Source of the DNA: a virus
Taxonomy: Duplodnaviria; Caudoviricetes
Virus record (IMG/VR): IMGVR_UViG_3300020049_007105
Span: 35,900 to 99,899 of that record
Reading direction: 5' to 3' (one strand)
DNA: 64,000 nt
Shown in pieces: positions 1 to 48,612 of this stretch. Each line of letters opens with the position of its first letter. The stretch's first letter is position 1. The notes beneath the pieces are model-generated. The model was not told the DNA's origin and made no database searches. It saw only the letters and a list, made by a program, of their open reading frames with translations. Both the position numbers and the translations under genes were made by a program.

Positions 1-2
1 CT

Positions 3-713
3 CGTGCCCGTGCGGGTATTGGAACGACCTTTACTGAGGCTGCTTCTGCGATTGTACTCGAAAGTGAAACCATGCCTGAAGATAGTGACGGGACAGTAGT
101 GAAAGAAACCGCAGAAGATTCCGATATACCTAAAGAATCAACAAATGTCGAAGCTGACGTATTGGATGTAGCTTCTAAAGAAGGAGATAAAGTGCCTGAT
201 ATTACTATGACCGATGTGCCAGACGACGTTCAGACTCAGATCGTTGAGGCGTTCTTGAGCGCCCACGCTGTGGACGAGCAGGCTGAAGCCTTGAAGGCTG
301 ATATTGCCGCACTTCAGACCAAGCTTGATCAGGCTGAGGCTGCTAAGGCTTCTGCTGAGTCTAAGGTTTCGGATGTTGCTAACTATCTGGAAGCCGTTAA
401 GACCGAGGCCGATGAGGCTGCCGCTCTTGAGGCTCGCAAGTCTGACCGAGTTGCTGAGATTGCGAAGCTGGTGACTTTCTCTGACGAGTATGTTACTGAG
501 AACGCTGATCGCTGGGCTGCTCAGTCGGAAGATGACTTCGCTGCGACCCTTTCGGTCATTGCTGAAGCTCATGGTACCAAGACCGAGGTTTCGGAGGACG
601 ATGAGTCTACCGAGTCCGAGAAGGCCGCTCTGCATGTGACCCTGAACACCAGCTCGCCTGGCGCTAAGGACACCTTCCGAGATGCCCTCAAGTCCCACCT
701 CATCAACTCATAA
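3..713 (+). CDS. C-terminal part of a prohead protease/scaffolding protein (5'-partial)
   Basis: Frame is open to the window edge upstream of ATG 72. Acidic, Ala/Glu-rich coiled-coil just before the capsid genes. Internal RBS AAGGAG (181-186) with in-frame GTG 192 suggests a nested scaffold start. Confidence 0.65.
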   Translation, partial: RARAGIGTTFTEAASAIVLESETMPEDSDGTVVKETAEDSDIPKESTNVEADVLDVASKEGDKVPDITMTDVPDDVQTQIVEAFLSAHAVDEQAEALKADIAALQTKLDQAEAAKASAESKVSDVANYLEAVKTEADEAAALEARKSDRVAEIAKLVTFSDEYVTENADRWAAQSEDDFAATLSVIAEAHGTKTEVSEDDESTESEKAALHVTLNTSSPGAKDTFRDALKSHLINS

Positions 714-743
714 TTAGATAGACCTAGGAAAGGTATAAAGACA

Positions 744-1253
744 ATGGCAGATGTTACGCTAAAGAGCGCAGAGTACCGAATCGCCCCCCAGATTGAGAAC
801 ATCGACGGGCGTCACGTTTCGGGCGCTGCATTTCGTCGGCTCGTTCCTGTTAAGGCTAGCACGACTGTGGAGGACGGCTTTGAGCGCTCTTCGGTTGTAG
901 CGGCTACGGCGGCTACGGGTCCTGTGCGAGGCATGAACGGTCTCGTTGACTACGTGAAGCTTGGCCAGTCCGGCTTCGAGGACTTCCGTGGCGGTTTCGA
1001 CCGTGAAACTATTCCTGCGGGCGTGCCCGTGCAGATGGTTCAGGGTTCCGAGATGAAGGTTGCTTATCGCAACTCGGATGACGTGAAGATGGTTGCTGGA
1101 GTGACCGCTGTTGGCGCACTTGTGACCCCTCAGACTTCCCCCGACGACACTGCTGGCTACTTCGTTGTGACTTCCACTGCGGCTGAAGCCTGGGGTGTCA
1201 TTACCAACATTTCGGCTGACGGCGACATTGAAGTTCGCTTCAGCAACCTCTAA
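744..1253 (+). CDS. Capsid decoration/cement protein
   Basis: Strong RBS AGGAAAGG; 169 aa, beta-rich; lies between scaffold and major capsid. Confidence 0.6.
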   Translation: MADVTLKSAEYRIAPQIENIDGRHVSGAAFRRLVPVKASTTVEDGFERSSVVAATAATGPVRGMNGLVDYVKLGQSGFEDFRGGFDRETIPAGVPVQMVQGSEMKVAYRNSDDVKMVAGVTAVGALVTPQTSPDDTAGYFVVTSTAAEAWGVITNISADGDIEVRFSNL

Positions 1254-1284
1254 GAGAACCTAATTAGGAAAGGGTAATAAACCT

Positions 1285-2187
1285 ATGTCAGATTACACGC
1301 TAGCAGATATTGAAGCCGCAAAGGCGAAGCTTAACGCCGAGATGCGGGAGCGTTGGGACGATGCGTCGTTCCGCCGTGAATTCGCTGCTGACCTGGCCGA
1401 GAGCATTTGGCTCGGCTATTCGGATCAGTCGCTGGTAGACCTCGTTGCGGACGTTAGCCGAGTTACGCTTGACGCAAAGGTGTACGTTCGTGAGCTGAAG
1501 GGTCTTCGGGCTTTCTGGACCGCCCGTGGTGGTTTCATCGAGCAGAGCGAGCTCAGCCAGGATGAGTACGAACTGGTGCCCGATAGCCTGGGTGTCCGTG
1601 TCCGTGAGCATGAGGAGGCTATTGCGACTCGCATTGCCGAGACCGCTGTGGACCTCAAGACCCAGGGTGTGAAGCAGATTGACCTTGGTGTCAACCAGCG
1701 CTTCCTGAAGATGCTTCAGGCCGCTACGCCTTCGAACGATGCGAACGACAACTACACGTTGGTCGCTGGTGTGACGCTTGATAGCGTCCGTGACGCCCTC
1801 ATGAAGGTGGCTGACGCTACCGAGGGTTCGAAGATTTCCATTATCGGTCGCTCGACCATGGTCCATCAGGTCATGAATGCGGTCCAGGATGGTAGCTTCT
1901 TCACTCCGACGACCAACGAGAACCTGATTCAGCGTGGCCAGATGGGTACCTTTAACGGCGCTCAGCTTATCACGGTGAAGAACGTTCGTGGCGGCGCTCA
2001 GACTATCCCGAACAACGAGCTGTATGTTGTGGCTGAGGATGCGGCTAAGGTCGCCTTCTTCGGTGACATCAAGGCCAAGGAGCGGGTTGATGACAACTGG
2101 TACTGGCATTGGGTGACTCGCCTGGATGTTGGTATGCTGCTCCACCACACTGATCGTGTGGAGCGGATTGTTGACTCCAGCCTGTAA
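1285..2187 (+). CDS. Major capsid protein (HK97-fold inferred)
   Basis: 300 aa, strong RBS AGGAAAGGG, strongly biased codons, position after scaffold/decoration, followed by a terminator; GQMGTFNGAQL resembles capsid G-x-F-x-G segments. Confidence 0.8.
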   Translation: MSDYTLADIEAAKAKLNAEMRERWDDASFRREFAADLAESIWLGYSDQSLVDLVADVSRVTLDAKVYVRELKGLRAFWTARGGFIEQSELSQDEYELVPDSLGVRVREHEEAIATRIAETAVDLKTQGVKQIDLGVNQRFLKMLQAATPSNDANDNYTLVAGVTLDSVRDALMKVADATEGSKISIIGRSTMVHQVMNAVQDGSFFTPTTNENLIQRGQMGTFNGAQLITVKNVRGGAQTIPNNELYVVAEDAAKVAFFGDIKAKERVDDNWYWHWVTRLDVGMLLHHTDRVERIVDSSL

Positions 2188-2260
2188 AGGCAGTTCCCCG
2201 GACCCGCTAACGCCTTAGGGCGTGCGGCCGGGGCAGTAGTACCCTTTCCTTAGGTAGATG

Positions 2261-2293
2261 GTAGCCGGGTCCTTCGGGGCTCGGCTACTTCTC
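2261..2293 (+). terminator. Intrinsic terminator after capsid gene
   Basis: GTAGCCGGGTCC-TTCG-GGGCTCGGCTAC stem with cUUCGg tetraloop, followed by TTCTC. Confidence 0.75.
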
Positions 2294-2302
2294 GTTAGGG
2301 GC

Positions 2303-2331
2303 TTGACTGACCCACGGCAACCTGCTACGCT
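2303..2331 (+). promoter_or_regulatory. Host primary-sigma promoter for the DnaE cassette
   Basis: TTGACT-N17-TACGCT upstream of RBS AAGGAG and ATG 2361. Confidence 0.7.
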
Positions 2332-2360
2332 TGGACTCTCAACCACCGAAGGAGAGCCCT

Positions 2361-2849
2361 ATGGCTGGACAGATGATGACCCCGAACCCCGACCTTGCAA
2401 GTCGTCTCGCCAGCGTGAGATATCTGGACGTAGACGCAAATAGGGCAACCGCTCTGGGCCAGTTGGACGCAGCGGAGCGGAAGGTTCTTTTGAGGGCGGC
2501 TAGGGGTGACGGTACCCCTGTGCCTGTGGAGGACGCTTTTGAGCTAATATACTCGTTCGGGGCTACGACTGAGTTTGTAGCGAGAATTGATGACCCAACT
2601 TTGATCGAAGACCTTTTCTCGTGGGTTGAGGAGTGCAAGGGGCCACCGATTGACGAGATCATCATTGCTCTCACCGAAGGGGTCGAGGCTTTAGTGAAAG
2701 AGCACCTTGGTGACCTCCCTGACACTCAGTTGGAGGCGATCTACGATACTTGCTATAATGCTAGCATTAGTAAGGTTCCTACTTCTGCGGATGACACAAC
2801 GGCAGTAGTTATGTTTCTTGCCCGCAATGCTCGTTGGAGCCAGCCATGA
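2361..2849 (+). CDS. Hypothetical protein
   Basis: RBS AAGGAG before ATG 2361; ATGA overlap with next gene. Confidence 0.6.
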   Translation: MAGQMMTPNPDLASRLASVRYLDVDANRATALGQLDAAERKVLLRAARGDGTPVPVEDAFELIYSFGATTEFVARIDDPTLIEDLFSWVEECKGPPIDEIIIALTEGVEALVKEHLGDLPDTQLEAIYDTCYNASISKVPTSADDTTAVVMFLARNARWSQP

Positions 2850-3319
2850 CTCGCCGTATTGTTTCCTGCGTCGAGTCTGACAAGCTGATTGCTGATTCAC
2901 TTAGTGTCGTCGGTGGGCACCACAACTACATGAAGGGTAATCCAGATTTTACTGATCCTCGTGGTCGAGCTGAGACCGTAACCATCTGGGAGACTGCTGA
3001 TGGTGAGTGGTTGACGAACACCCTAGATGCTGATGGTTGCACTCATTATGTTGAGCCCGCCCCCCTTAATTTTAGCACTATGTCTGATGCTGAAATTGTA
3101 GGTCATGTTAAAGAGGCTGACATTGAGGGACATATTGAAACTGATTGCCACCCAGAGTATGGGTCCAGCCAACCAGGGCATGTGTATGTCTATGAGGACG
3201 GCACGGTGTCTGGTCAAGATAATGGCAACGCAGATATTCAGGTTTCCGTGTGGGTTAACACCATTGATGAAGACACATCTACTATTGAAGTCACTGATGA
3301 CATTGAGAGGTTTGTGTGA
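2846..3319 (+). CDS. Hypothetical acidic protein
   Basis: ATGA-coupled start, GGAG RBS. Confidence 0.55.
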   Translation: MTRRIVSCVESDKLIADSLSVVGGHHNYMKGNPDFTDPRGRAETVTIWETADGEWLTNTLDADGCTHYVEPAPLNFSTMSDAEIVGHVKEADIEGHIETDCHPEYGSSQPGHVYVYEDGTVSGQDNGNADIQVSVWVNTIDEDTSTIEVTDDIERFV

Positions 3320-3612
3320 GTGACATTATCCGAACAGCAGAGGAAGCCTGTAGGGCATACAGTCGGGTGCAGAACCGCAATCCTTATGGGCAGCCTCCGG
3401 CTAGGTCGGAACTGGAGGCCACAATGAAATTGATAAGCCCACTGTTGTCGTTGATCGCTGAGGGACGAGTGGTGGTTGAAATTTTACCTGAGTTCTGTTA
3501 TGATTGTTATGGTGACAAAGTTTCGATCTTCATGAAGGGTACCGATGATGAGTGGTGCGAACACTGTCGCCGTTGCCGTGGCACAGGGTTTGAGCCAGAG
3601 GAGGTTGAATAG
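3316..3612 (+). CDS. Small Zn-finger protein (CxxCxG...CxxCxGxG)
   Basis: CYDCYG...CRRCRGTG motifs; GTGA-coupled start. Confidence 0.55.
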   Translation: MSDIIRTAEEACRAYSRVQNRNPYGQPPARSELEATMKLISPLLSLIAEGRVVVEILPEFCYDCYGDKVSIFMKGTDDEWCEHCRRCRGTGFEPEEVE

Positions 3613-3794
3613 TGAAGCCTGAGGCAAGCATCCAAGTACACTTGATGTCACTCAGCGAGGATTTACCCGGCTATGAGTGTTCTGGCGATTGTGGTCGCTT
3701 CGGTGGTGTCGTCCCAGGGTGGAAACTGGGGTCTTCATGGGACTGGGTTCCGTGCCCGATTCATCAAGGGCCAGCCCAAGGAGTTTCGCAGTGA
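3612..3794 (+). CDS. Small Cys/His protein
   Basis: GGAGG RBS, coupled start, CxxxC...CPxH. Confidence 0.5.
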   Translation: MKPEASIQVHLMSLSEDLPGYECSGDCGRFGGVVPGWKLGSSWDWVPCPIHQGPAQGVSQ

Positions 3795-4063
3795 AGCCTG
3801 AGACACGACAAGCATTAGCATTAACAGTGATGGATTCCTTGGACTCTACGGAGCCAACAGGGCACATCAGGAAGTGGCTAGACGGTGACAGCTATGCGGA
3901 GTTCGAGGACAGGGCCGGTCTGTTCTGGGTCAGGCTGTTCGAAGGAAATAGTTACACTGGGTGCAACTATTCTTTTGACTCTGAGGGGGCTTTTCTAGAT
4001 GCCTTCCACAGTGCTGTAACAGAGCTTAATGAAACAGGCTATGGCAAGCCCATGAGGACCTAG
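3791..4063 (+). CDS. Hypothetical protein
   Basis: AAGGAG RBS and GTG 3791 overlapping the previous stop. Confidence 0.55.
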   Translation: MKPETRQALALTVMDSLDSTEPTGHIRKWLDGDSYAEFEDRAGLFWVRLFEGNSYTGCNYSFDSEGAFLDAFHSAVTELNETGYGKPMRT

Positions 4064-4067
4064 GCGT

Positions 4068-4286
4068 ATGAAACCACCAAACTGGATGCTGTGCTCGAAA
4101 TGTGGGGTCGGTCACGCTGAGTCCCATGTGTTAGACGCAACCTTCGCTGGACCGCAAACCGTCTACACATGTAGTAATGCGCTCTGTGAGGAGTGCTCGG
4201 CGCTGCCATTTACGCAAGACGATATCAATCGGTCCAGGGGTTGCAGAACTTGCATGGGCTTCTTAAGGCAACGCAATCCAATTTAA
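4068..4286 (+). CDS. Small Cys-rich Zn-binding protein
   Basis: Several CxxC motifs; GAGG RBS. Confidence 0.5.
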   Translation: MKPPNWMLCSKCGVGHAESHVLDATFAGPQTVYTCSNALCEECSALPFTQDDINRSRGCRTCMGFLRQRNPI

Positions 4287-4299
4287 CCGAGGAGAGTAA

Positions 4300-4500
4300 G
4301 TGTCAAAAGTAATTCTAACTAAGGGCCTCCCGGCATCGGGTAAAAGTACTTGGGCAAGAGGATGGGTTGCAAAGAAGCCTACTGCTCGTGTCCGGGTTAA
4401 CAAGGATGATCTCCGTGAAGCACTTCATGGAGGTAAGTTCTCTAAGGGCAACGAGAAGGACATTCTTGACGCTGAAGCGGCGGATGGGCTGTATGCCTGA
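4300..4500 (+). pseudogene. Truncated polynucleotide kinase (PseT/AAA_33-type N-terminus)
   Basis: ILTKGLPASGKSTWA P-loop and RVNKDDLR motif, but stops after 66 aa, overlapping the DnaE start. Confidence 0.75.
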
Positions 4501-7500
4501 ATTTGTACACCTACATCAACATACTCACCACTCCATGCTGGATGGTGCATCTAAGGCTTCTGACGCTGTTGCTGAAATTGTTCGCCAGGGTGGCAAAGGT
4601 CTTGCTATTACTGATCATGGTAATATGTTCGGCGCTGTTGACTTCTACCGGGAGTGCAAGAAGCAGGGTGTCAACCCTATTCTGGGTATTGAGGCTTATG
4701 CCGCTAAGGCTGGGGTGGGTGAACGCCCGAGTACTTCTAAGAAGGTTGGTGAGGGGGACGAGGGTGGTAACACTGCTAGCGGAAAGGCATATTACCACCA
4801 GCTTCTTTTGGCTAGGAACTATGAGGGTTTTCAGAATCTGATGAAGCTTAGCTCTAGGGCCTATACTGAGGGCTTCTATTACAAGCCACGGCTCGATCTG
4901 GCGATGTTGGAGGATCACTCCAAGGGTCTGATTGCTACTACCTCTTGCCTTGGCGGTGTTCCTCTTCAGCTCATTATGGCTGGCAAGGATCGTGAGGCTA
5001 TGAACTATGTGGCCGGTCTTAAAGATATTATGGAGCCAGGCCATCTTTTTGTGGAGCTTCAGGACCATGGCATCCTTGAACAGAAGGAGACTAACCCGAC
5101 ACTTATTCAGATTGCCAGGAAGCTCGATCTCCCCCTTGTTGCTACGAACGATTCCCATTATGTTCACGCTCATGACCATGAGACCCATGATGCGCTTTTG
5201 TGCATCCAGACTCGTGCAAAGATTTCTGACACGGATCGGTTTAAGTTCCAGGGCCAGGATTTCTATCTGAAGACTGCTGATGAGATGGCACGGGTCTTTG
5301 ATGGTCTCCCTGAGGCTTTGTCTAACACCATGTTGATTAACGATATGGTGGATATTGAGCTACCCACTCAGATCAGTGGGTTGCCGCACTTTCCTTTGCC
5401 GGAAGGTTTTATTGATGAACGTGATTATCTTACCCATCTAGTAAAGCTTGGAGCCAATAAGCGCTATGCCGGAACTGATGTGGATTTTGATGCGGTGGTG
5501 GATCGAATTGAATATGAACTGGGCGTCATTTGTGAGATGGGCTTTGCGTCCTATTTTCTGATTAACTGGGATTTGATTCGGGAGGCTCATGAGCGAGGCA
5601 TCCTCTGTGGTTTTGGCCGGGGCAGTGCGGCTGGTTGTGCTGTTGCATATTGCTTGAACATTACCAAGGTTGACCCGATTCGGCATGGCCTAATTTTTGA
5701 GCGGTTCCTGAATCCGTCCAGGGTTTCGATGCCTGATATTGATTCAGACTTTCAGGCTGACCGTCGAGATGAACTCATTCAATACCTCAAGGACACCTAT
5801 GGTATTGATCATGTTGCTCAGGCGATTACTTTCGGAGTGATCCGCTCTAAGGCTGCACTGAAGGATTCGACTAGGGTCCAAGGCTATGACTACGCTGATG
5901 GCGAAAGACTGTCCAAGGCTTTCCCTGACCCCCTGTTTGGCCGTCAGGCGCCCATTGGAGCGGTGCTACACGAGGTTCCGGGACTTGAGTGGGCCTATGA
6001 GAGCGGGCAAGATTTCCGTGCCTTAGCGGGCTCCACACCGGCTATGAGCGCTATCGTGAAACTGGCTCAAGCCATTGAGGGCATCAAGCGTTCTGAGTCG
6101 ATTCACCCAAGTGCGCTTATTATTTCCGACAGGCCCCTCCTTGAGGTGTGCCCTACAGGCCGGAAGCCCGGTGGACCACTATTTACTCAGTGGGAGCAGG
6201 ATATTCTTGAAGCCCTTGGCCTCCTGAAGCTCGACATCCTTGGGTTAAAGAACTTGGACATTTTGGGAAGGTGCATTACAAGGGTTTTGGCCGCTGGCAT
6301 TGAGGTCCCCGACATCTATGAATCCAACCCTCAGTTTAAGGATGAGGCTACATATAAGCTTTTAGCGGCCGGTAAGTCTATTGGCGTGTTTCAGCTTGAG
6401 TCTCCAGCCATGAGGGCTCTGCTGAGAAAGATGGTGCCGAACTCCATTGAGGACATCTCGGCAACTATCGCTTTGTATCGTCCAGGGCCAATGTCCCAGG
6501 ACTACCATAACATTTTTGCTGATAGGAAGAATGGTCGAGTCCCTATTGCAAGCATCCATGAACGACTGGAGCCGTTGCTAAAGGACTCCTACCAGCTCCC
6601 AATCTACCAAGAACAGGTCATGACCATCAGTCGTGAGGCTGCTCAGTTTGATATGGTTGAGGCTGACAACATGCGTAAGGCCATGGGTAAGAAAGATCAG
6701 GGCCTCCTTGATTCTTTCCGTGAGAAGTTTGTTCAGGGTTGTATTGACAATGATTACACCGAGGAATTCTCTAACAGACTGTTCGATGGTCTAGAGGATT
6801 ACGCCAGCTATGCGTTTAACGCTTCTCACAGTATGGGCTATGCGTATTTGTCATACTGGACTGCATATTTCAAGGCTAACCACACTGGGTTCTATATGGC
6901 GGCACTAATGGATTATGCCGCTGACCTAGACGGTTTGAAGCCCTTGCTGGCAGAGACTCAGAGTTTGGGTGTTAAGATCATGCCCCCTACGGTCCAGTCT
7001 AAGATGAACAGCTTCACTTTTGACCCAGAGGTTAACGGCATTCACTTTCCTTTGTCTTCGATTAAGGGTGTTGGTAAGATTGGTGATATAATCTCTGAGG
7101 GCGCCCCATATGATGATGTGTGGGATTTTGCTGCCAGAGTGGCTATCAATGCTAGCGCTTTCCAAGCGGTCGCCAGGTCAGGTGGTTTTGATTCTCTGAC
7201 TGACGAGACAAGGGAGACTCTGATTTTTAATCAGGATACGATACTTACACACGGAAGGTCTAAGATCAAAGACAACAAGGTTGGTGCTATGTCTCTGTTT
7301 GGGGATGAGGATTTCTATCCCGAGTTGGAACAGAACCCGGAGCCTGAGGATGAGGCGGTAACGCTTAATCACGAGAAGGATTACATAGGTGTGTTCCTGA
7401 GTGGTCATCCCGTGGATGGCTTCGAGGGTATTTCGGAGATGTTTATCTCTGAGATCAATGAACACGAGTTTGACGGTTCTTATATTGTTGCCGCTTATCT

Positions 7501-7764: not shown

Positions 7765-8280
7765 ATGTCTGAGGAAAAGATCGAAAACTGGGTCAACCGA
7801 GGCCCGAAGTTCCGTGTTTGGTTTATGGCCGACCTGTCTAAGCCGGGTTCGGCTTATGATCGTTTGGTTCATAACGAAGAGGGTTTCACTTTGACCCGCA
7901 CTGAGCGACTGTTTAATGAGAACAAGTTCGGTCGTCGTCCCGAGAATAACCCGTTCGCTAATGGCACGTTCACTAGTGCTGCTGAAGTGAAGGACCCTGA
8001 TGCGTCTTTGAAGACGAAGACGCCCAATACTTTTTCGGATGATGAACTTGTCAGCCTTTTGGGCGAGCACTGGAGGACCCTTCAGGAGGGTCTGGATGAG
8101 ATTACGAATCCTGTGACTCTGCGCCGAATGATTACTTTGGGTATCGATGCTGACCTTTCAGCTAAGGCTGTTGAGCGTGCCCAGAAGCGCCTTAATGAGT
8201 TGGAGCCTGAGAGTGACCAGAAGTCTGACGGTGCTTTCGATGAGGGCGATGGCGACGACGACGACGAAGACACCTTCTGA
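7765..8280 (+). CDS. Hypothetical head/neck-module protein with acidic C-terminus
   Basis: Strong RBS AAGGAGAGG; first gene after the DnaE cassette. Confidence 0.6.
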   Translation: MSEEKIENWVNRGPKFRVWFMADLSKPGSAYDRLVHNEEGFTLTRTERLFNENKFGRRPENNPFANGTFTSAAEVKDPDASLKTKTPNTFSDDELVSLLGEHWRTLQEGLDEITNPVTLRRMITLGIDADLSAKAVERAQKRLNELEPESDQKSDGAFDEGDGDDDDEDTF

Positions 8281-8339
8281 GAGCCCGTACAAGGCCGTCT
8301 AACGGCCACTAACCCACCTACTAGGGGGATCGTACCCGA

Positions 8340-8807
8340 ATGCTGCTAACGTCGCTTGTAGACGCCCTGAGGCGGGCTATCAACCCTCCCGGCGAAGAGC
8401 TATTTCCCAACGCTAATGATCTTGTTCTCCAAGGATACTTGGCGGATGCTTTTGGTGTTGCCAGGATGAACGGTGTGATCCCCCAGAAGTGGGTTAATAA
8501 CGCTGGAACTATTGAGAACCCAGATGATGCTGCTGACGTGTTCCCTGTGGACTTGGCAACTATTATTGTGATTTATGCGAAGATTCAGATTCTGAGAAGT
8601 CGTATTATGAATATCCAGTCCAAGTTTAAGGCTAAGGCTGGACCTGTTGAGTATGAGACTCAGAATGCTGTAACGCACCTGAGGGAGTTGTTGAGGACTT
8701 TCGAGGATGAACTTGAGGAAATCAAGGACGCCTTGACAGAGAACAAAACTATTTGTAGCAAGTATATTGATGTAGGCTTGAATCGAGTCTATCCGGGCCG
8801 GTGGTAA
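8340..8807 (+). CDS. Head-to-tail adaptor (probable)
   Basis: 155 aa, helical with KAKAGPVEYE beta-hairpin typical of gp6/gp15-like adaptors; position. Confidence 0.6.
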   Translation: MLLTSLVDALRRAINPPGEELFPNANDLVLQGYLADAFGVARMNGVIPQKWVNNAGTIENPDDAADVFPVDLATIIVIYAKIQILRSRIMNIQSKFKAKAGPVEYETQNAVTHLRELLRTFEDELEEIKDALTENKTICSKYIDVGLNRVYPGRW

Positions 8808-8810
8808 AAA

Positions 8811-9335
8811 GTGTTTAAGAAACTCCTTTTGGGACTGGTTACGATAGCGCTGCTGGCTGGGTGCGTAGCTCCGCCGCCGAACTTCCCGGTGTATCAGGAG
8901 GGTCGGGCGTTCCCGTCGTGCACGGTCCCGATCTACGTGTCGGCGAATGTGCAGGACCGGCCGCGGGTGAAGGCCGCGGCCGCCGAGTTCGGCCGTCTGT
9001 CGGGCTACCGTTTCGCTGATTCGTCCTATGCGGATGCGTCGGCGCACGGCATCGTTGTGGTGTGGCGCGGGGGGACGGCGCCGAGGGGCGGCGGGAAAGC
9101 GAACCCGACCTACCGCCGGTCCGGTGGCCGTCTGTGGACGACATGGCGGATCGACCTCGACAACGTGGGTGCGGTCCGTCACGAGTGGGGGCACACGATG
9201 GGATGGCTGCACCCGTCCCCGCCGGTGGCTGGCAACCTGATGAGCAACAGCACGACGATCCACCCGGTACAGGCTGGGCAGGCGCGGTGGTTGCGGGCCG
9301 AGTCGGCACGGCTGAACCCTGGGGGGTGCCGCTAA
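8811..9335 (+). CDS. Lipoprotein zinc metallopeptidase (metzincin/matrixin-like)
   Basis: Lipobox LAGC; HEWGHTMGWLH matches HExxHxxGxxH; Met-turn-like NLM. Confidence 0.85.
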   Translation: MFKKLLLGLVTIALLAGCVAPPPNFPVYQEGRAFPSCTVPIYVSANVQDRPRVKAAAAEFGRLSGYRFADSSYADASAHGIVVVWRGGTAPRGGGKANPTYRRSGGRLWTTWRIDLDNVGAVRHEWGHTMGWLHPSPPVAGNLMSNSTTIHPVQAGQARWLRAESARLNPGGCR

Positions 9336-11590
9336 TGGCCGCTGTCGAAATCCCGTGGTCGCGGATCGTCACATGGTCGCCATCTAGCGCACCGTTTGGG
9401 CTCACCCCGAGCGGGGTACTCACGCTGAACCGGGTCTTACCGGGCGTTCTCACGACCGACACGGCCGTACCTGCCGGGTCAGCGTCGATCCGGGTCGCTG
9501 AACTGCCGGGAGGCGGCGAGCTGGGACGGTACGGGTACGCTCTCCGAACCTTCGGTGGTGCGCTGCTCGTCCCGACCAACCTGGACGGCGCCACGTTAAA
9601 CGCCGGTTACGCCTACCCACGCCACAACCCCGCAGTGTGGACCCCCGAGTGGAACACCCCGGGCGGCGACATTGTGCTCGAAACACGGCTCTGGTCGAAC
9701 GCGCTCGGATTGCACGCAGCGAAACTGTCGGGGCTGATCGTCGGCCCGTCCACCGTGGGCGACCTCCAGTATTGGGACAGCCTTGACCTTGCCACGACAG
9801 TGGCAGCGGGCTACGTTTTTCCGACGTGGCCCGTGTCCGGTGTCGACGGTCCGTGGGTGAGTGCGTTCGCTTCGGGCACAGTGCTCGCGGTCCGCAAGAC
9901 GTGGACTGGCACCAAGACGATCACGGTCCCGCTCCGACAGACCGGCAGCACCATGACCGCCACACTCACCGCACCCGGTGGAGCGACGTTGCTGTCCGCT
10001 GGCGGGGCGACGGTCTCCGGTTCGACGTTAACAATCCCGCCCGGTGTGCAGTGCGTCCCCAAGTGGGAAGCAACCGGGGGCGCCACACTGACGCTTACGA
10101 AGGGCGCTCCGGCGATCGTCGCCAGCTACGCCCCCGTGTTCGTCGAAACGCCAGTAGTTCCGCCGACGCCGCCGACGATCACCAAACTGATCCCCACGGT
10201 CGGCCCCGACACGGGCGGCACGCTCGTCGATGTGATTGGCACCGACCTGACCGGCGCCACCGCCGTGGACTTCGGAGGCACGGCAGGCACCGGGCTGACC
10301 GTCGACCCGTCCGGCAACCTCGCCACGGTCACCAGCCCGGCACACACCGCAGGCCCCTACCCGGTGACGATCACCACCCCCGCAGGCGTGAGCAACGCCG
10401 AGACGTTCACGTTCGAGGCGCCGCCGGTTGTCACCGTCCCCGTCATTTACGCAGCGTACCCGTTACGCCTTTGTGCCGACGCCCCCGACAACCCGCAGGT
10501 GCTGATCCCCATCATCTTCCCGATCACTGACGTGGTTAGCGCCGAGGTAGGCGGAGTGGACGCCGGGGTCGGTGGGGTGCTCGACATCGGCGGGGGGGGT
10601 GGCTCCGTGTTCATATCCCCGCCATCCCTGTCGCCCGGCACCTACGACCTGATCCTCACGAACAGCGCAGGGTCGTCTGACCCGTACCCGATCGAATATG
10701 TTGACTGCGAAGGCTGCCCGCCCGACCCGACCGTCGTCGCAGTGTTCCCCGGCGCAGCGCTCCCCGGTGCCACGATCCAGCTCGTCGGCACCAACCTGAC
10801 CGGCGCCACCGTCACCATGTGCGGCGATCCTGTCGCCATCGTCAGCAACGACGGCAACATCATCACCGTTGTCGTACCGCCCGGCTGCCCCGACGGGCCA
10901 GCCACTATCACGGTCACCACACCAGACGGCGAGACAACCGTCGACTTCACGGTGCTGAAACTACTGGCTCCGGTCATTGACCTGGCTACTCCAGATGAGG
11001 GGTACAACACAGGCGGAGGTGTTGTCATGCTGTCGGGTCGGAATTTCCTGGGTGTCTCTGAGGTAACCTTTGACGGCCTTCCTGGAGTTAACCTGTTTGT
11101 TCCTTCTGATGATGTGCTGATTGTTACTGCACCGCCCCATGCTGCTGGTCAGGTCAGTATTCTCGTTACGAGCCCTTCTGGGGTCAGTCTGCCTTTCGAT
11201 TGGACATACATCCCAACGGATGGTCCGCCAGATATTTACGGTATTGTCCCATCTTCCGGCCCTAAAACTGGCGGCACTGAGATCACTCTGATCGGTAAGG
11301 GTTTTGTTGGTCTTACTTCTATCACGATTGAGGGCAAGGAGTGTTTTAGGGTTACTGTTTTGAGTGACACTGAGGCAACCTGTGTGACCACTTCCAATCC
11401 GGTTGGTTCAGCGCAGGTTATTGCTACCAACAGTAAGGGGGCTTCGCCTCCAGCCAATTTCACTTACTTCGAAGCTGAGGGTGGCACGGGGATTGACAAC
11501 CTTGGTGCCGGTGGAATTATTTTTCAGAGCCTGAAGCTGTTCAAGAAAGTCGATATCACTATCAGGATGCCTGATCTAAGGAAACCGTAA
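9335..11590 (+). CDS. Multi-IPT/TIG (Ig-like) domain virion protein
   Basis: TAATG-coupled start; repeated GPxxGGTxVxIxGxxFxG..V.FxG...V.SP IPT/TIG units. Confidence 0.85.
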   Translation: MAAVEIPWSRIVTWSPSSAPFGLTPSGVLTLNRVLPGVLTTDTAVPAGSASIRVAELPGGGELGRYGYALRTFGGALLVPTNLDGATLNAGYAYPRHNPAVWTPEWNTPGGDIVLETRLWSNALGLHAAKLSGLIVGPSTVGDLQYWDSLDLATTVAAGYVFPTWPVSGVDGPWVSAFASGTVLAVRKTWTGTKTITVPLRQTGSTMTATLTAPGGATLLSAGGATVSGSTLTIPPGVQCVPKWEATGGATLTLTKGAPAIVASYAPVFVETPVVPPTPPTITKLIPTVGPDTGGTLVDVIGTDLTGATAVDFGGTAGTGLTVDPSGNLATVTSPAHTAGPYPVTITTPAGVSNAETFTFEAPPVVTVPVIYAAYPLRLCADAPDNPQVLIPIIFPITDVVSAEVGGVDAGVGGVLDIGGGGGSVFISPPSLSPGTYDLILTNSAGSSDPYPIEYVDCEGCPPDPTVVAVFPGAALPGATIQLVGTNLTGATVTMCGDPVAIVSNDGNIITVVVPPGCPDGPATITVTTPDGETTVDFTVLKLLAPVIDLATPDEGYNTGGGVVMLSGRNFLGVSEVTFDGLPGVNLFVPSDDVLIVTAPPHAAGQVSILVTSPSGVSLPFDWTYIPTDGPPDIYGIVPSSGPKTGGTEITLIGKGFVGLTSITIEGKECFRVTVLSDTEATCVTTSNPVGSAQVIATNSKGASPPANFTYFEAEGGTGIDNLGAGGIIFQSLKLFKKVDITIRMPDLRKP

Positions 11591-11591
11591 T

Positions 11592-11888
11592 ATGGCTTTT
11601 TATAATGGCGAGACGTTCATTGTCCAGGTTGAACTTAAGGACTACCTTGGCGATCTCCTGATTGGTGGCGATCTGAGTTCCGTTGTTGGTACGGTCTATG
11701 AGTCCGATGGCGAAACTGAAGCGGTCCCTACTTTCTCTTTCGTCTATTCTGATGAGCGGGGTCGCTGTTGGGTTGGCGAGTTTGATACTGACGGTGTGCC
11801 CTATGGGAAGTATAAGCTTAAGGTTCTTGTTACCGCTAAGGATGGCTCTCAGAACTGGGAGTATTCGACTCTGACTCTGAGGCCCTAA
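11592..11888 (+). CDS. Small Ig-like beta-sandwich virion protein
   Basis: 98 aa, GKYKLKV strand pattern; coupled to next gene. Confidence 0.55.
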   Translation: MAFYNGETFIVQVELKDYLGDLLIGGDLSSVVGTVYESDGETEAVPTFSFVYSDERGRCWVGEFDTDGVPYGKYKLKVLVTAKDGSQNWEYSTLTLRP

Positions 11889-12604
11889 TGAGCCTAGAGA
11901 TTTTAGCCCTTTTTCCTGATTCGAGCGTCGAGGCCGGTGATATCGAAGTTGCCGTGGTGGGTGACGAGTTCACTGGTGTGACTGATGTGACTTTTGACGG
12001 GGTTTCGGCTACGGACCTAGTTTTCGTTTCTGATGGTATGCTTACGGTTACTGCACCGGCTGGTGCGGGTGTGGTTGATGTTGTTGTCACGACACCCTTA
12101 GGCACTTCTTCCCCTTTTAGTTTTACTTACGTTGCGCCTCCTACGACTAATGTCATTAACAAGTCAAACCAGGGGGCTTTTAATGAGGCAGCTTTTAGGG
12201 ATGGCATTCTGTTTGCCATGAACATGGGGACGCCCAAAGAAGTTGAGGAGCGTGTAACTTTCGTTTGGGAAGCCAAAAAGGATTACCTGGCCGAGGACGG
12301 CAAGGGCGTTCCTTTCAAGCTGGATGACGCAGGCACTCTAGTTACCCCAGAGAGGACCGCTCAAATCCCTCTCGCTTTGGAGTTCATTAACCGTTCCACT
12401 CTTTCTGGTGGTACTGGACTTGAAGCTTTTGATACACCGAGGGTTGTTCTTACTGTCATGGACACTGAGTTCCCTCAGATTCAGGGCGCTGACTATATGA
12501 TCATTGATGGTGACCACTACGATATTAAGTTTGAAGCTCCCCCTGTTGGGCTCTTCAACGTAACAGTACATACCATTCATGGTCACGCTAGAGATGAGAC
12601 CTAA
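11888..12604 (+). CDS. IPT/TIG domain fused to a probable head-closure (stopper-like) domain
   Basis: N-terminal FTGVTDVTFDG...LTVTAP IPT unit; C-terminal IIDGDHYDI typical of stopper proteins. Confidence 0.6.
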   Translation: MSLEILALFPDSSVEAGDIEVAVVGDEFTGVTDVTFDGVSATDLVFVSDGMLTVTAPAGAGVVDVVVTTPLGTSSPFSFTYVAPPTTNVINKSNQGAFNEAAFRDGILFAMNMGTPKEVEERVTFVWEAKKDYLAEDGKGVPFKLDDAGTLVTPERTAQIPLALEFINRSTLSGGTGLEAFDTPRVVLTVMDTEFPQIQGADYMIIDGDHYDIKFEAPPVGLFNVTVHTIHGHARDET

Positions 12605-14090: not shown

Positions 14091-14177
14091 GTCTCGAATA
14101 ACACCAAATACGATATACCTAAGGAACCTACCTGTTAGATGCAGCTAGCACAAATCTATTCTTAGGGAGTATCCTCC

Positions 14178-15383
14178 ATGGCAATTAAGTCCGGCAACAT
14201 TATCCATGATGTGCATGGATTCGTCATCGACCGAGTTCAGAGTGCGGGTGGGTCCATTGATGTCCCTACCACGAAGATTGATGAGCTTGGTAACTACGAG
14301 TCCGTTGCGACCATTCGTGACATTCCTGACCTCCAGTTCAACCTTGAATCCTTCGATGCTTCCACTGAGATTGAGGCTTTGATTTGCGGCTTTGATCCGA
14401 CGACCACCTCTGCGGGCCAGGCGTTTGATTTCCGTAATGCCAAGGAGTTCGGTATCCGTAGCCCGTTCAAGTCGGGTACGACCTTTACTGTTAATCATGG
14501 TGTGATCTTGCCTTGGCTGACTTTGGAGTCTGCTTCGTACAGCTTTGGTCTGGCTGACAATGCTACGCAGACGTTCAACTTCCGTGGCGACTCCATCTTC
14601 TATGTGCCTGGTTCGCCTCGCTATGAAGAGTTCACTGTTATTGATGAGGGTCCGTACACTCTCACTGATGACCCGGCCATCAAGTTCACTCAGGCTGGCA
14701 ACTCTGTTTACGCCCTGTCGGTTGTGCTTGTGGACAGTGTTACGAAGAACCAGCGTCGTTTGAAGGCTGGCGCTGACTATGCGAGCACGGCTACCACTTT
14801 GACTTTGACGGCTGACCCGGTTGCCGATTTCGACACGATTCGTGTGTACTACGGCTCGACTGATGCTGACACGTTCAACCAGACTGTTCACCAGGGTGTA
14901 TCTGTCAAGCCTGCTGCGGTTCGCGGCAAGGACATTGATATCTATGTCGCTAACACTGCTGGTACTGTGTGGACCCGCTGGACGAGTGTCCAGTCCTTCT
15001 CGGCTGACTGGTCTGTGAGCCTTGAGAGTGATGAGGAGTTTGGCAACACCGAGCGTGTTTCCTACGGCTACTCCGACACTCCGGCTACGACTGGCTCGAT
15101 TGGTGTGAAACCTCGTGACGCCAGCGACCTGTGGGAGAAGCTGAGTGTGATCAGCGGCATTCCTACGACCGACGTGATTGGCACCCAGGCTGCTGTTGCC
15201 TTGCCAGTCCGTGCGGTTGTCCGTGAGCCTAATACGGCCAACGTCATGAAGACTCTCACGATCCCCAAGGCTCGCTTTAAGGTTCCTTCACTGGAGCCTA
15301 GCGTGAACCAGAAGCTTGAGGTCAGCTTTGAGTTTGAGTCTGATGACGGTGTGATGACGGTTACGAAGGGTATGCCCGCCTAA
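14178..15383 (+). CDS. Major tail (tube) protein
   Basis: 401 aa, Thr/Ser/Val-rich, biased codons; precedes chaperones and tape measure; followed by a terminator. Confidence 0.8.
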   Translation: MAIKSGNIIHDVHGFVIDRVQSAGGSIDVPTTKIDELGNYESVATIRDIPDLQFNLESFDASTEIEALICGFDPTTTSAGQAFDFRNAKEFGIRSPFKSGTTFTVNHGVILPWLTLESASYSFGLADNATQTFNFRGDSIFYVPGSPRYEEFTVIDEGPYTLTDDPAIKFTQAGNSVYALSVVLVDSVTKNQRRLKAGADYASTATTLTLTADPVADFDTIRVYYGSTDADTFNQTVHQGVSVKPAAVRGKDIDIYVANTAGTVWTRWTSVQSFSADWSVSLESDEEFGNTERVSYGYSDTPATTGSIGVKPRDASDLWEKLSVISGIPTTDVIGTQAAVALPVRAVVREPNTANVMKTLTIPKARFKVPSLEPSVNQKLEVSFEFESDDGVMTVTKGMPA

Positions 15384-15447
15384 TCACACTCTCCCGTTTG
15401 GGAGAAACATATCTGCCGCCTCCCTCCCTCCTCCTAGCGGCACTTGA

Positions 15448-15495
15448 GAGAGCCTTGCCGGTCTTGTGGTGTGACCGGCAAGGCTCTCGTATTTT
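15448..15495 (+). terminator. Intrinsic terminator after major tail gene
   Basis: 16-bp perfect stem GAGAGCCTTGCCGGTC/GACCGGCAAGGCTCTC followed by GTATTTT. Confidence 0.8.
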
Positions 15496-48159: not shown

Positions 48160-48495
48160 TTAGAGACCTAGAACGTCGTCTAGCCCACTAGTGAAACTCT
48201 GCTTAATAGCAGCGATTAAAGGATTGGTTTGATCCCAAGTCGTATTGCTTGCCTCGGCGTAAACCTCGCCCTTGACCTCGACTACAATCTTATCCATGAT
48301 GCGGTTGCCTTCGTTATAGACCTTGAGGTCTTCACCGGAATGAAAGAGATGCCGATCTCCGGGTTCAGCTCGGTCCCAAAGAAGATGACCTGATTCAGTT
48401 GACTCAATAAGTGCAGTCATACGCTTACGGTACAAGGCTTGCTCCTCCTCGTACCTCTGAACACGCCCTTCTTCATTGTCTCCAAAATCGTACAT
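48160..48495 (-). CDS. Hypothetical protein
   Basis: RBS AAAGGA before MYDFG. Confidence 0.55.
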   Translation of the reverse strand: MYDFGDNEEGRVQRYEEEQALYRKRMTALIESTESGHLLWDRAEPGDRHLFHSGEDLKVYNEGNRIMDKIVVEVKGEVYAEASNTTWDQTNPLIAAIKQSFTSGLDDVLGL

Positions 48496-48612
48496 ACTTT
48501 TCCTTTCAGGTTGATCTAGCATAGCTCTTGGAACTTCAAGCACTCTAGTTGTACTGATTGGAGGAGGTGGTAACAGGTGTACTGTGCGCTCTCCTCTCAA
48601 CATATCCTCCTC

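Follow-up and report, generated by a model that had tools for sequence, protein, structure and literature searches.

Does the untranslated tail of a phage capsid messenger control the translation of its own message? The question is raised by a locus in an uncultured phage, in which the exact complement of the capsid ribosome-binding site (RBS) stands between the stop codon of the capsid gene and the terminator. The DNA analysed, hereafter the window, is a 64-kb stretch of a 99.9-kb IMG/VR viral contig with an estimated completeness of about 73%, and the phage is present in many wastewater and activated-sludge metagenomes. DNA and protein searches among GenBank phages gave no near relative, the best being Caudovirales GX15bay with 37% amino-acid identity in the capsid. 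The GC content is 0.59-0.60 at 8001-12000 and about 0.50 in the remaining window. The features needed for the argument are the following:

726 to 733, plus strand: AGGAAAGG in the RBS of the 169-aa head gene (744-1253), 8 nt complementary to the 3'UTR element

1258 to 1279, plus strand: capsid ribosome-binding region, with ACCTA (1258-1262), a 3-nt bulge ATT and the SD core AGGAAAGGGTA (1266-1276)

1285 to 2187, plus strand: major capsid protein gene, 300 aa, predicted HK97 fold

2196 to 2233, plus strand: three-part stable hairpin CCCCGG...CCGGGG, beginning 9 nt past the stop, with no U-tract and bounding the element on its 5' side

2237 to 2255, plus strand: putative anti-SD element TAG-TACCCTTTCCT-TAGGT, whose core (2240-2250) is the exact complement of 1266-1276

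2260 to 2296, plus strand: intrinsic terminator of the head transcription unit, with a 13-bp stem (2260-2289), a TTCG loop and the tail TCTCGTT

The product of the ORF at 1285-2187 is the major capsid protein, as predicted from its AlphaFold model (pLDDT 84.7), for which the top Foldseek matches are phage capsids and HK97 (E 3e-12 to 1e-9). The ORF matches phrog_16565 and phrog_2522 (major head protein), and relatives of the protein carry the Pfam annotation PF27364 (YonB). The head module consists of three genes with little space between them, of which the capsid gene comes last, after a gene of 436 aa that starts before the window and ends at 713 (RBS AGAAAGGGTA) and the gene of 169 aa, and the three are a probable operon with the capsid at its end. 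Downstream of the capsid terminator an unrelated mosaic region leads to the DNA polymerase III alpha gene. The SDs of all three head genes are unusual, (A/G)GAAAGG(G)TA, most other genes of the contig having GGAGG; an SD of this kind would find its partner in the CCUUUC stretch of a 16S rRNA whose 3' tail is long. Metatranscriptome contigs from four RNA-library runs contain scattered pieces of the ORF 744-1253 and of the capsid ORF, without end or strand information.

The capsid SD core lies 8 nt upstream of the ATG at 1285 and, as the earlier note had claimed, the core of the 3'UTR element is its perfect reverse complement; these two are the only exact copies in the 64 kb. A repeat search extends the 11-mer pair to 14 nt at 93% (1266-1279 with 2237-2250), and five additional base pairs can form across the bulge between TAGGT (2251-2255) and ACCTA, one more than in the TAGG-CCTA extension described before. 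The element lies between the capsid stop at 2187 and the terminator, and the stretch from the capsid RBS to the element showed nothing resembling a terminator. It is also complementary to the RBS of the 436-aa gene over 9 nt. The match to AGGAAAGG is found where it had been reported, before the ORF 744-1253, the RBS of which is a possible second target; the name of decoration gene given to this ORF did not stand, since family searches with it returned no family match. The motif is not the start of a minus-strand gene, a possibility ruled out by the absence of a start codon (ATG, GTG or TTG) after it on that strand, already remarked upon in the earlier note for the window and found here in all three lineages described below. 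Two ORFs that overlap the element region, 2215-2346 on the minus strand and 2258-2443 on the plus strand, are not conserved, and T2259C abolishes the ATG of the latter.

We explored the setting of the element by folding 2185-2296, which gave a minimum free energy (MFE) of -54.5 kcal/mol (z -3.1). The CCCCGG...CCGGGG hairpin proposed between the capsid stop and the terminator is present at 2196-2233 in both the MFE and the centroid structure, and in the centroid 2234-2255 is unpaired between this hairpin and the terminator. Therefore the small TACC/GGTA hairpin in which the element had been thought to sit is unsupported, the MFE structure having at that place only a weak 3-bp helix. The terminator appears clearly in the fold, although a consensus terminator scan had missed it because of the wobble pairs in its stem. 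Cofolding of the RBS with the element gains -15.2 kcal/mol in the window and, once the opening costs are paid, the net interaction energy is -7.4 kcal/mol in the window and -10.7 and -12.0 kcal/mol in the other two lineages, values that exclude the cost of closing a loop of about 960 nt. A cmscan of 1-5000 with Rfam 15 at E <= 1 found no family over 2188-2296, its sole match being an unrelated sub-threshold snoRNA at 3541-3601. The element is not an arm of the terminator stem in the window lineage (WIN) or in its relatives L012 and L013, where it lies outside the stem; in the distant relatives L015-L027 and L045 the complementary tract is part of that stem.

The DNA directly past the capsid terminator is a mosaic junction (2297-2360 in the window, 3915-4070 in L002-L011). 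Contigs whose capsid is 99.8% identical diverge completely from about 2297, and in place of the window ORF 2361-2849 they carry a gene for an HD-domain phosphohydrolase (phrog_990); in L005, L012 and L013 the DNA polymerase III alpha gene comes much sooner after the capsid terminator. A weak sigma-70-like promoter, TTGACT-17 nt-TACGCT, is located just past the terminator (2303-2331) and was not called by a consensus scan (3/6 in the -10 hexamer). At this site relatives carry promoter-like sequences of a different kind, for example TGTATAAT in L012.

How far does the match exceed what chance would give? The earlier note had proposed setting the element against all RBSs of the phage with shuffled controls. 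Relative to dinucleotide shuffles of the 3'UTR, a match of at least 11 nt has P <= 0.001, and when the RBS of each of the 172 ORFs of the contig was compared with its own 120-nt downstream flank, the capsid gene stood at the top with 11 nt, the next best reaching 9 nt. By a duplex energy that tolerates bulges and wobble pairs, the capsid RBS ranks only 6th of 172 as a partner of 2234-2262, with the RBS of the 169-aa gene 7th. Since about 0.17 such matches are expected by chance per contig of 172 ORFs, the window match taken by itself is suggestive, exceeding chance only weakly. The same 1.8 kb contain a perfect 10-nt inverted repeat without meaning, and counts of CCTTTCC in sense transcripts were too small for its depletion to be judged.

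The weight of the argument thus falls on relatives, for which we searched a set of about 5.8 billion clustered proteins, another of 1.84 billion representatives, JGI metagenome contigs and IMG/VR, querying IMG/VR with the single protein, an alignment of 34 sequences and one of 3 sequences. The only capsid lineages closer than about 45% in these collections are L012 (55% amino-acid identity) and L013/L014 (56-57%); the C-terminal fragments L113, L114 and L116 belong to a distant clade and were rejected as members. Identity at third-codon positions of conserved four-fold sites is 0.39-0.47 among WIN, L012 and L013, so that synonymous sites are near saturation, and their 3'UTRs could not be aligned by MAFFT; neutral sequence has therefore turned over. 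Each of the three lineages nevertheless has, between stop and terminator, a complement of its own capsid RBS:

Window lineage: RBS AGGAAAGGGTA, element TACCCTTTCCT, 11 nt exact and 5 bp across the bulge

L012: RBS AAGGAAAGGTTATAAACC, element GGTTGATAGCCTTTCCTT, 18 positions with one G-U pair and one mismatch

L013: capsid SD GGAGAGAG, element CTCTCTCC, 8 nt exact

The architecture is common to all three, a stop followed by structure, an exposed element and the terminator, and the 3x3 table of RBS against 3'UTR is block-diagonal. The L012 duplex (-24.5 kcal/mol, z -6.7, P ~0.0004) ends 4 nt short of the ATG. A 9-nt core is common to WIN and L012, a conserved island in 3'UTRs that are otherwise unalignable, and this core is extended 5' of the SD in WIN and towards the ATG in L012; the opposite extensions argue for selection on pairing and not for a fixed motif. 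In L013 the match is short and of low complexity (P ~0.03), and the element is single-stranded between two hairpins. Both upstream head genes of L013 keep SDs of the AGGAAAGG type and the element matches the capsid SD only, which indicates that it follows the capsid SD and not the RBS flavour of the phage as a whole. Among the three lineages there is one full switch of SD and anti-SD, from AGGAAAGG/CCTTTCCT to GGAGAGAG/CTCTCTCC, besides the lineage-specific extensions and one change from G-C to G-U. The interpretation of the earlier note is partly supported, in that each of the two other lineages matches its own RBS, one of them with a different SD/anti-SD pair; the lineages number three, with effectively one compensatory switch, and the L013 match is only 8 nt. 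Selection for complementarity between capsid RBS and 3'UTR in WIN, L012 and L013 appears supported, although the evidence is thin.

Closer and more distant sequences delimit this signal. Variants of the window lineage (P0046-P0050, capsid 98-99.8% identical in nucleotides) have the same RBS and element, except for the Logan contig L128 (2400-2540), in which the element has one extra C (TACCCC) and the upstream hairpin one G fewer, with the RBS unchanged; the extra C may be a natural variant or a homopolymer assembly error. A further 64 capsid loci (35-44% identity) were clustered into 21 groups, in which complementarity in cis was compared with that of swapped pairs and barely exceeded it (z about -1.7, p 0.04-0.18). 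The complementarity that does occur in these clusters belongs mostly to a C-rich terminator arm of the ordinary kind, so that the marginal signal was not counted as support. As to conservation of the complementarity, named in the earlier note as a test of its interpretation, L012 and L013 each keep a match and more distant relatives give no clear signal, and the discrete putative element is a feature of the small WIN/L012/L013 clade.

What was computed here is the complementarity, the single-stranded setting upstream of the terminator, and the retention with changed sequence in two relatives. The reading that we prefer, with a probability of about one half, is that a pairing between 3'UTR and SD like that of icaR acts in cis, or in part in trans, to dampen capsid translation or to set its timing. 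In this mechanism the single-stranded pyrimidine-rich anti-SD (2237-2255), lying between the hairpin and the terminator, would pair with the capsid SD that lies about 960 nt upstream in its own transcript, and possibly also with that of sister molecules. The pairing would compete with the 16S rRNA tail of the 30S subunit for the capsid SD, by which initiation of capsid translation would be lowered or timed, and it would probably couple decay of the mRNA to ribosome occupancy as in S. aureus icaR. We infer that the pairing takes place in vivo, that it represses, and that its action is chiefly in cis. Against this mechanism, the closure of a loop of about 960 nt is costly, and the advantage of a brake on the protein that the phage needs most is not obvious.

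In open-access text we found no published example in a phage capsid gene, and the closest precedent is bacterial. In icaR of S. aureus a 7-nt anti-SD in the 3'UTR pairs with the SD, preventing initiation and giving rise to a site for RNase III (Ruiz de los Mozos et al. 2013, PMC3868564). The phage element is likewise a short pyrimidine-rich 3'UTR anti-SD upstream of a terminator, and the distance from SD to anti-SD is similar, about 840 nt in icaR and 957 nt in the phage capsid mRNA, with a core of 11 nt (CCCUUUCCU) in the phage as against 7 nt (UCCCCUG) in icaR. Unlike icaR, which is a bacterial repressor gene, the phage gene is a late structural one, and its pairing is predicted from sequence. 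When 8-mers complementary to the RBS are inserted at +831 nt in a B. subtilis 3'UTR, they inhibit initiation and reduce mRNA levels, with an effect that depends on local context, for example on whether the sequence is exposed or buried, and anti-SD-like sequences are generally depleted by selection from the mRNAs of this bacterium (Gill et al. 2025 preprint, PMC12697547). The phage element resembles these sequences in being an anti-RBS far downstream and complementary to the RBS, but in contrast to their depletion three lineages keep it at one fixed position, implying that it is used and not avoided.

An alternative that we consider unlikely is that the element acts mainly in trans, the 3' end of about 100 nt (hairpin, element and terminator) serving as a 3'UTR-derived small RNA, or as an abundant mRNA tail, that would mask the capsid SD and those of the remaining head genes with (A/G)GAAAGG(G)TA in a feedback like that of OppZ and CarZ. 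The matches of the element to the RBSs of the capsid (11 nt), the 169-aa gene (8 nt) and the 436-aa gene (9 nt) are consistent with it, and a 5' hairpin together with a terminator is the usual shape of stable 3'UTR-derived sRNAs; in L013, however, the element matches the SD of the capsid only and not those of the neighbouring head genes. OppZ and CarZ of Vibrio cholerae are autoregulatory 3'UTR-derived sRNAs (Hoyos et al. 2020, PMC7398697) in which, as proposed for the phage, the 3' end of the transcript pairs with a ribosome-binding region of its own operon, their feedback being negative. They are separate RNAs, processed by RNase E and bound by Hfq, whereas the phage sRNA is hypothetical.

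A related feature belongs to the gene for a tail-like protein of 401 aa (14178-15383). Within 120 nt of the stop, a sense 3'UTR with 9 or more consecutive pyrimidines is found for only two plus-strand genes, the capsid and the tail-like gene. The 3'UTR of the latter (15384-15495, fold z -7.3) contains, in this order, a small hairpin, a 6-bp stem that presents the 17-nt loop CUCCCUCCCUCCUCCUA (15419-15435) and a strong 16-bp terminator. This loop is a generic anti-GGAGG and matches 10 nt (TAGGAGGAGG) of the RBS of the minus-strand gene 48160-48603; against the RBS of the tail-like gene itself, the 3'UTR gave no match above shuffles in any of five lineages. The RBS of the tail-like gene, AGGGAGTATCCTCCATG (14160-14180), has an SD and then CCTCC directly before the ATG, and a local mini-hairpin GGAG/CUCC sequestering the SD is possible there. 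In the orthologous gene of the L012 lineage (L132:2207-2300, from the same sample) a hairpin loop, UUUCCUCCUUU, contains CCUCCUUU, in which it resembles many 16S rRNAs at their 3' tail, and downstream of the loop comes TAGCCTTTCCTTGGGGGTC, a second copy of the capsid motif. This copy agrees at 19/20 positions with the one in the L012 capsid 3'UTR and can form a duplex of -21.4 kcal/mol with the capsid RBS of L012, the motif TAGCCTTTCCTTSGGGGTC being repeated in 3'UTRs of the L012-lineage phage. The L132 copy could reach the capsid RBS only in trans, which keeps alive a reading by sRNA or mRNA crosstalk. On the other side, we only infer that a single phage is the source of L132 and L012, and CCTTTCC does not occur in the tail 3'UTR of the window itself.

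It is also unlikely, in our estimate, that there is no functional pairing with the RBS at all, the pyrimidine tract being an S1/Hfq-type protein site, an RNase site, a spacer before the terminator or a sequence without purpose, and its SD complementarity a coincidence helped by the likeness of any C/U-rich tract to an anti-SD. The number of matches expected by chance per contig (about 0.17), the short low-complexity match of L013, the lack of a clear signal in distant relatives and the better energetic partners of the element all favour coincidence, and a wider function of such tracts is hinted at by the pyrimidine-rich loop in the 3'UTR of the tail-like gene, a loop that matches the gene's own RBS no better than shuffles do. 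This explanation does not account well for the 18-nt duplex of L012, for a core extended differently in each lineage, for an L013 element that tracks a changed capsid SD while the neighbouring genes retain the old one, or for a 9-nt island conserved in UTRs that cannot otherwise be aligned.

More speculatively, and with less confidence than either of these, the exposed tracts of the capsid and tail-like mRNAs, as the most plentiful of the late messages, might be seen together as mimics of the 16S rRNA 3' tail, forming a network of RNAs that acts in cis and in trans on SDs, in which the capsid tail would target the GGAAAGG sites of head genes and the tail-gene loop (CUCCCUCCCUCCUCCUA, or UUUCCUCCUUU in the relative) the canonical GGAGG of early or host genes. 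Were this so, late transcription itself would reprogramme which messages get ribosomes.

Least probable among the alternatives is a protective contact, in which the two sites pair but the contact between the mRNA ends keeps RNases, in the absence of a bound ribosome, away from the region near the RBS or from the 3' end and so prolongs the life of the late head mRNA, as in B. subtilis hbs, where a 14-bp pairing of the 5' and 3' UTRs inhibits RNase Y cleavage in the leader and ties the access of ribonuclease to the initiation of translation (Braun et al. 2017, PMC5737220). It rests on the same complementarity and covariation as the icaR-like reading, shares with hbs the long-range pairing of both mRNA ends, and stabilisation would suit a very abundant late protein better than throttling; however, the hbs pairing overlaps the RNase Y site whereas the phage duplex covers the SD core, in L012 up to 4 nt before the ATG, and must compete with the 30S subunit, and distal anti-RBS sequences lowered both mRNA level and translation in the systematic B. 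subtilis screen (PMC12697547).

If the icaR-like pairing is real, the principle by which an mRNA tail masks its own RBS, known from icaR and OppZ, would extend to the major capsid gene of a tailed phage, in which the stoichiometry and timing of capsid synthesis matter for assembly. The element is compact, a pair of 11-18 nt, and it would offer a natural exception, under positive selection, to the general depletion of anti-SD sequences from bacterial mRNAs.
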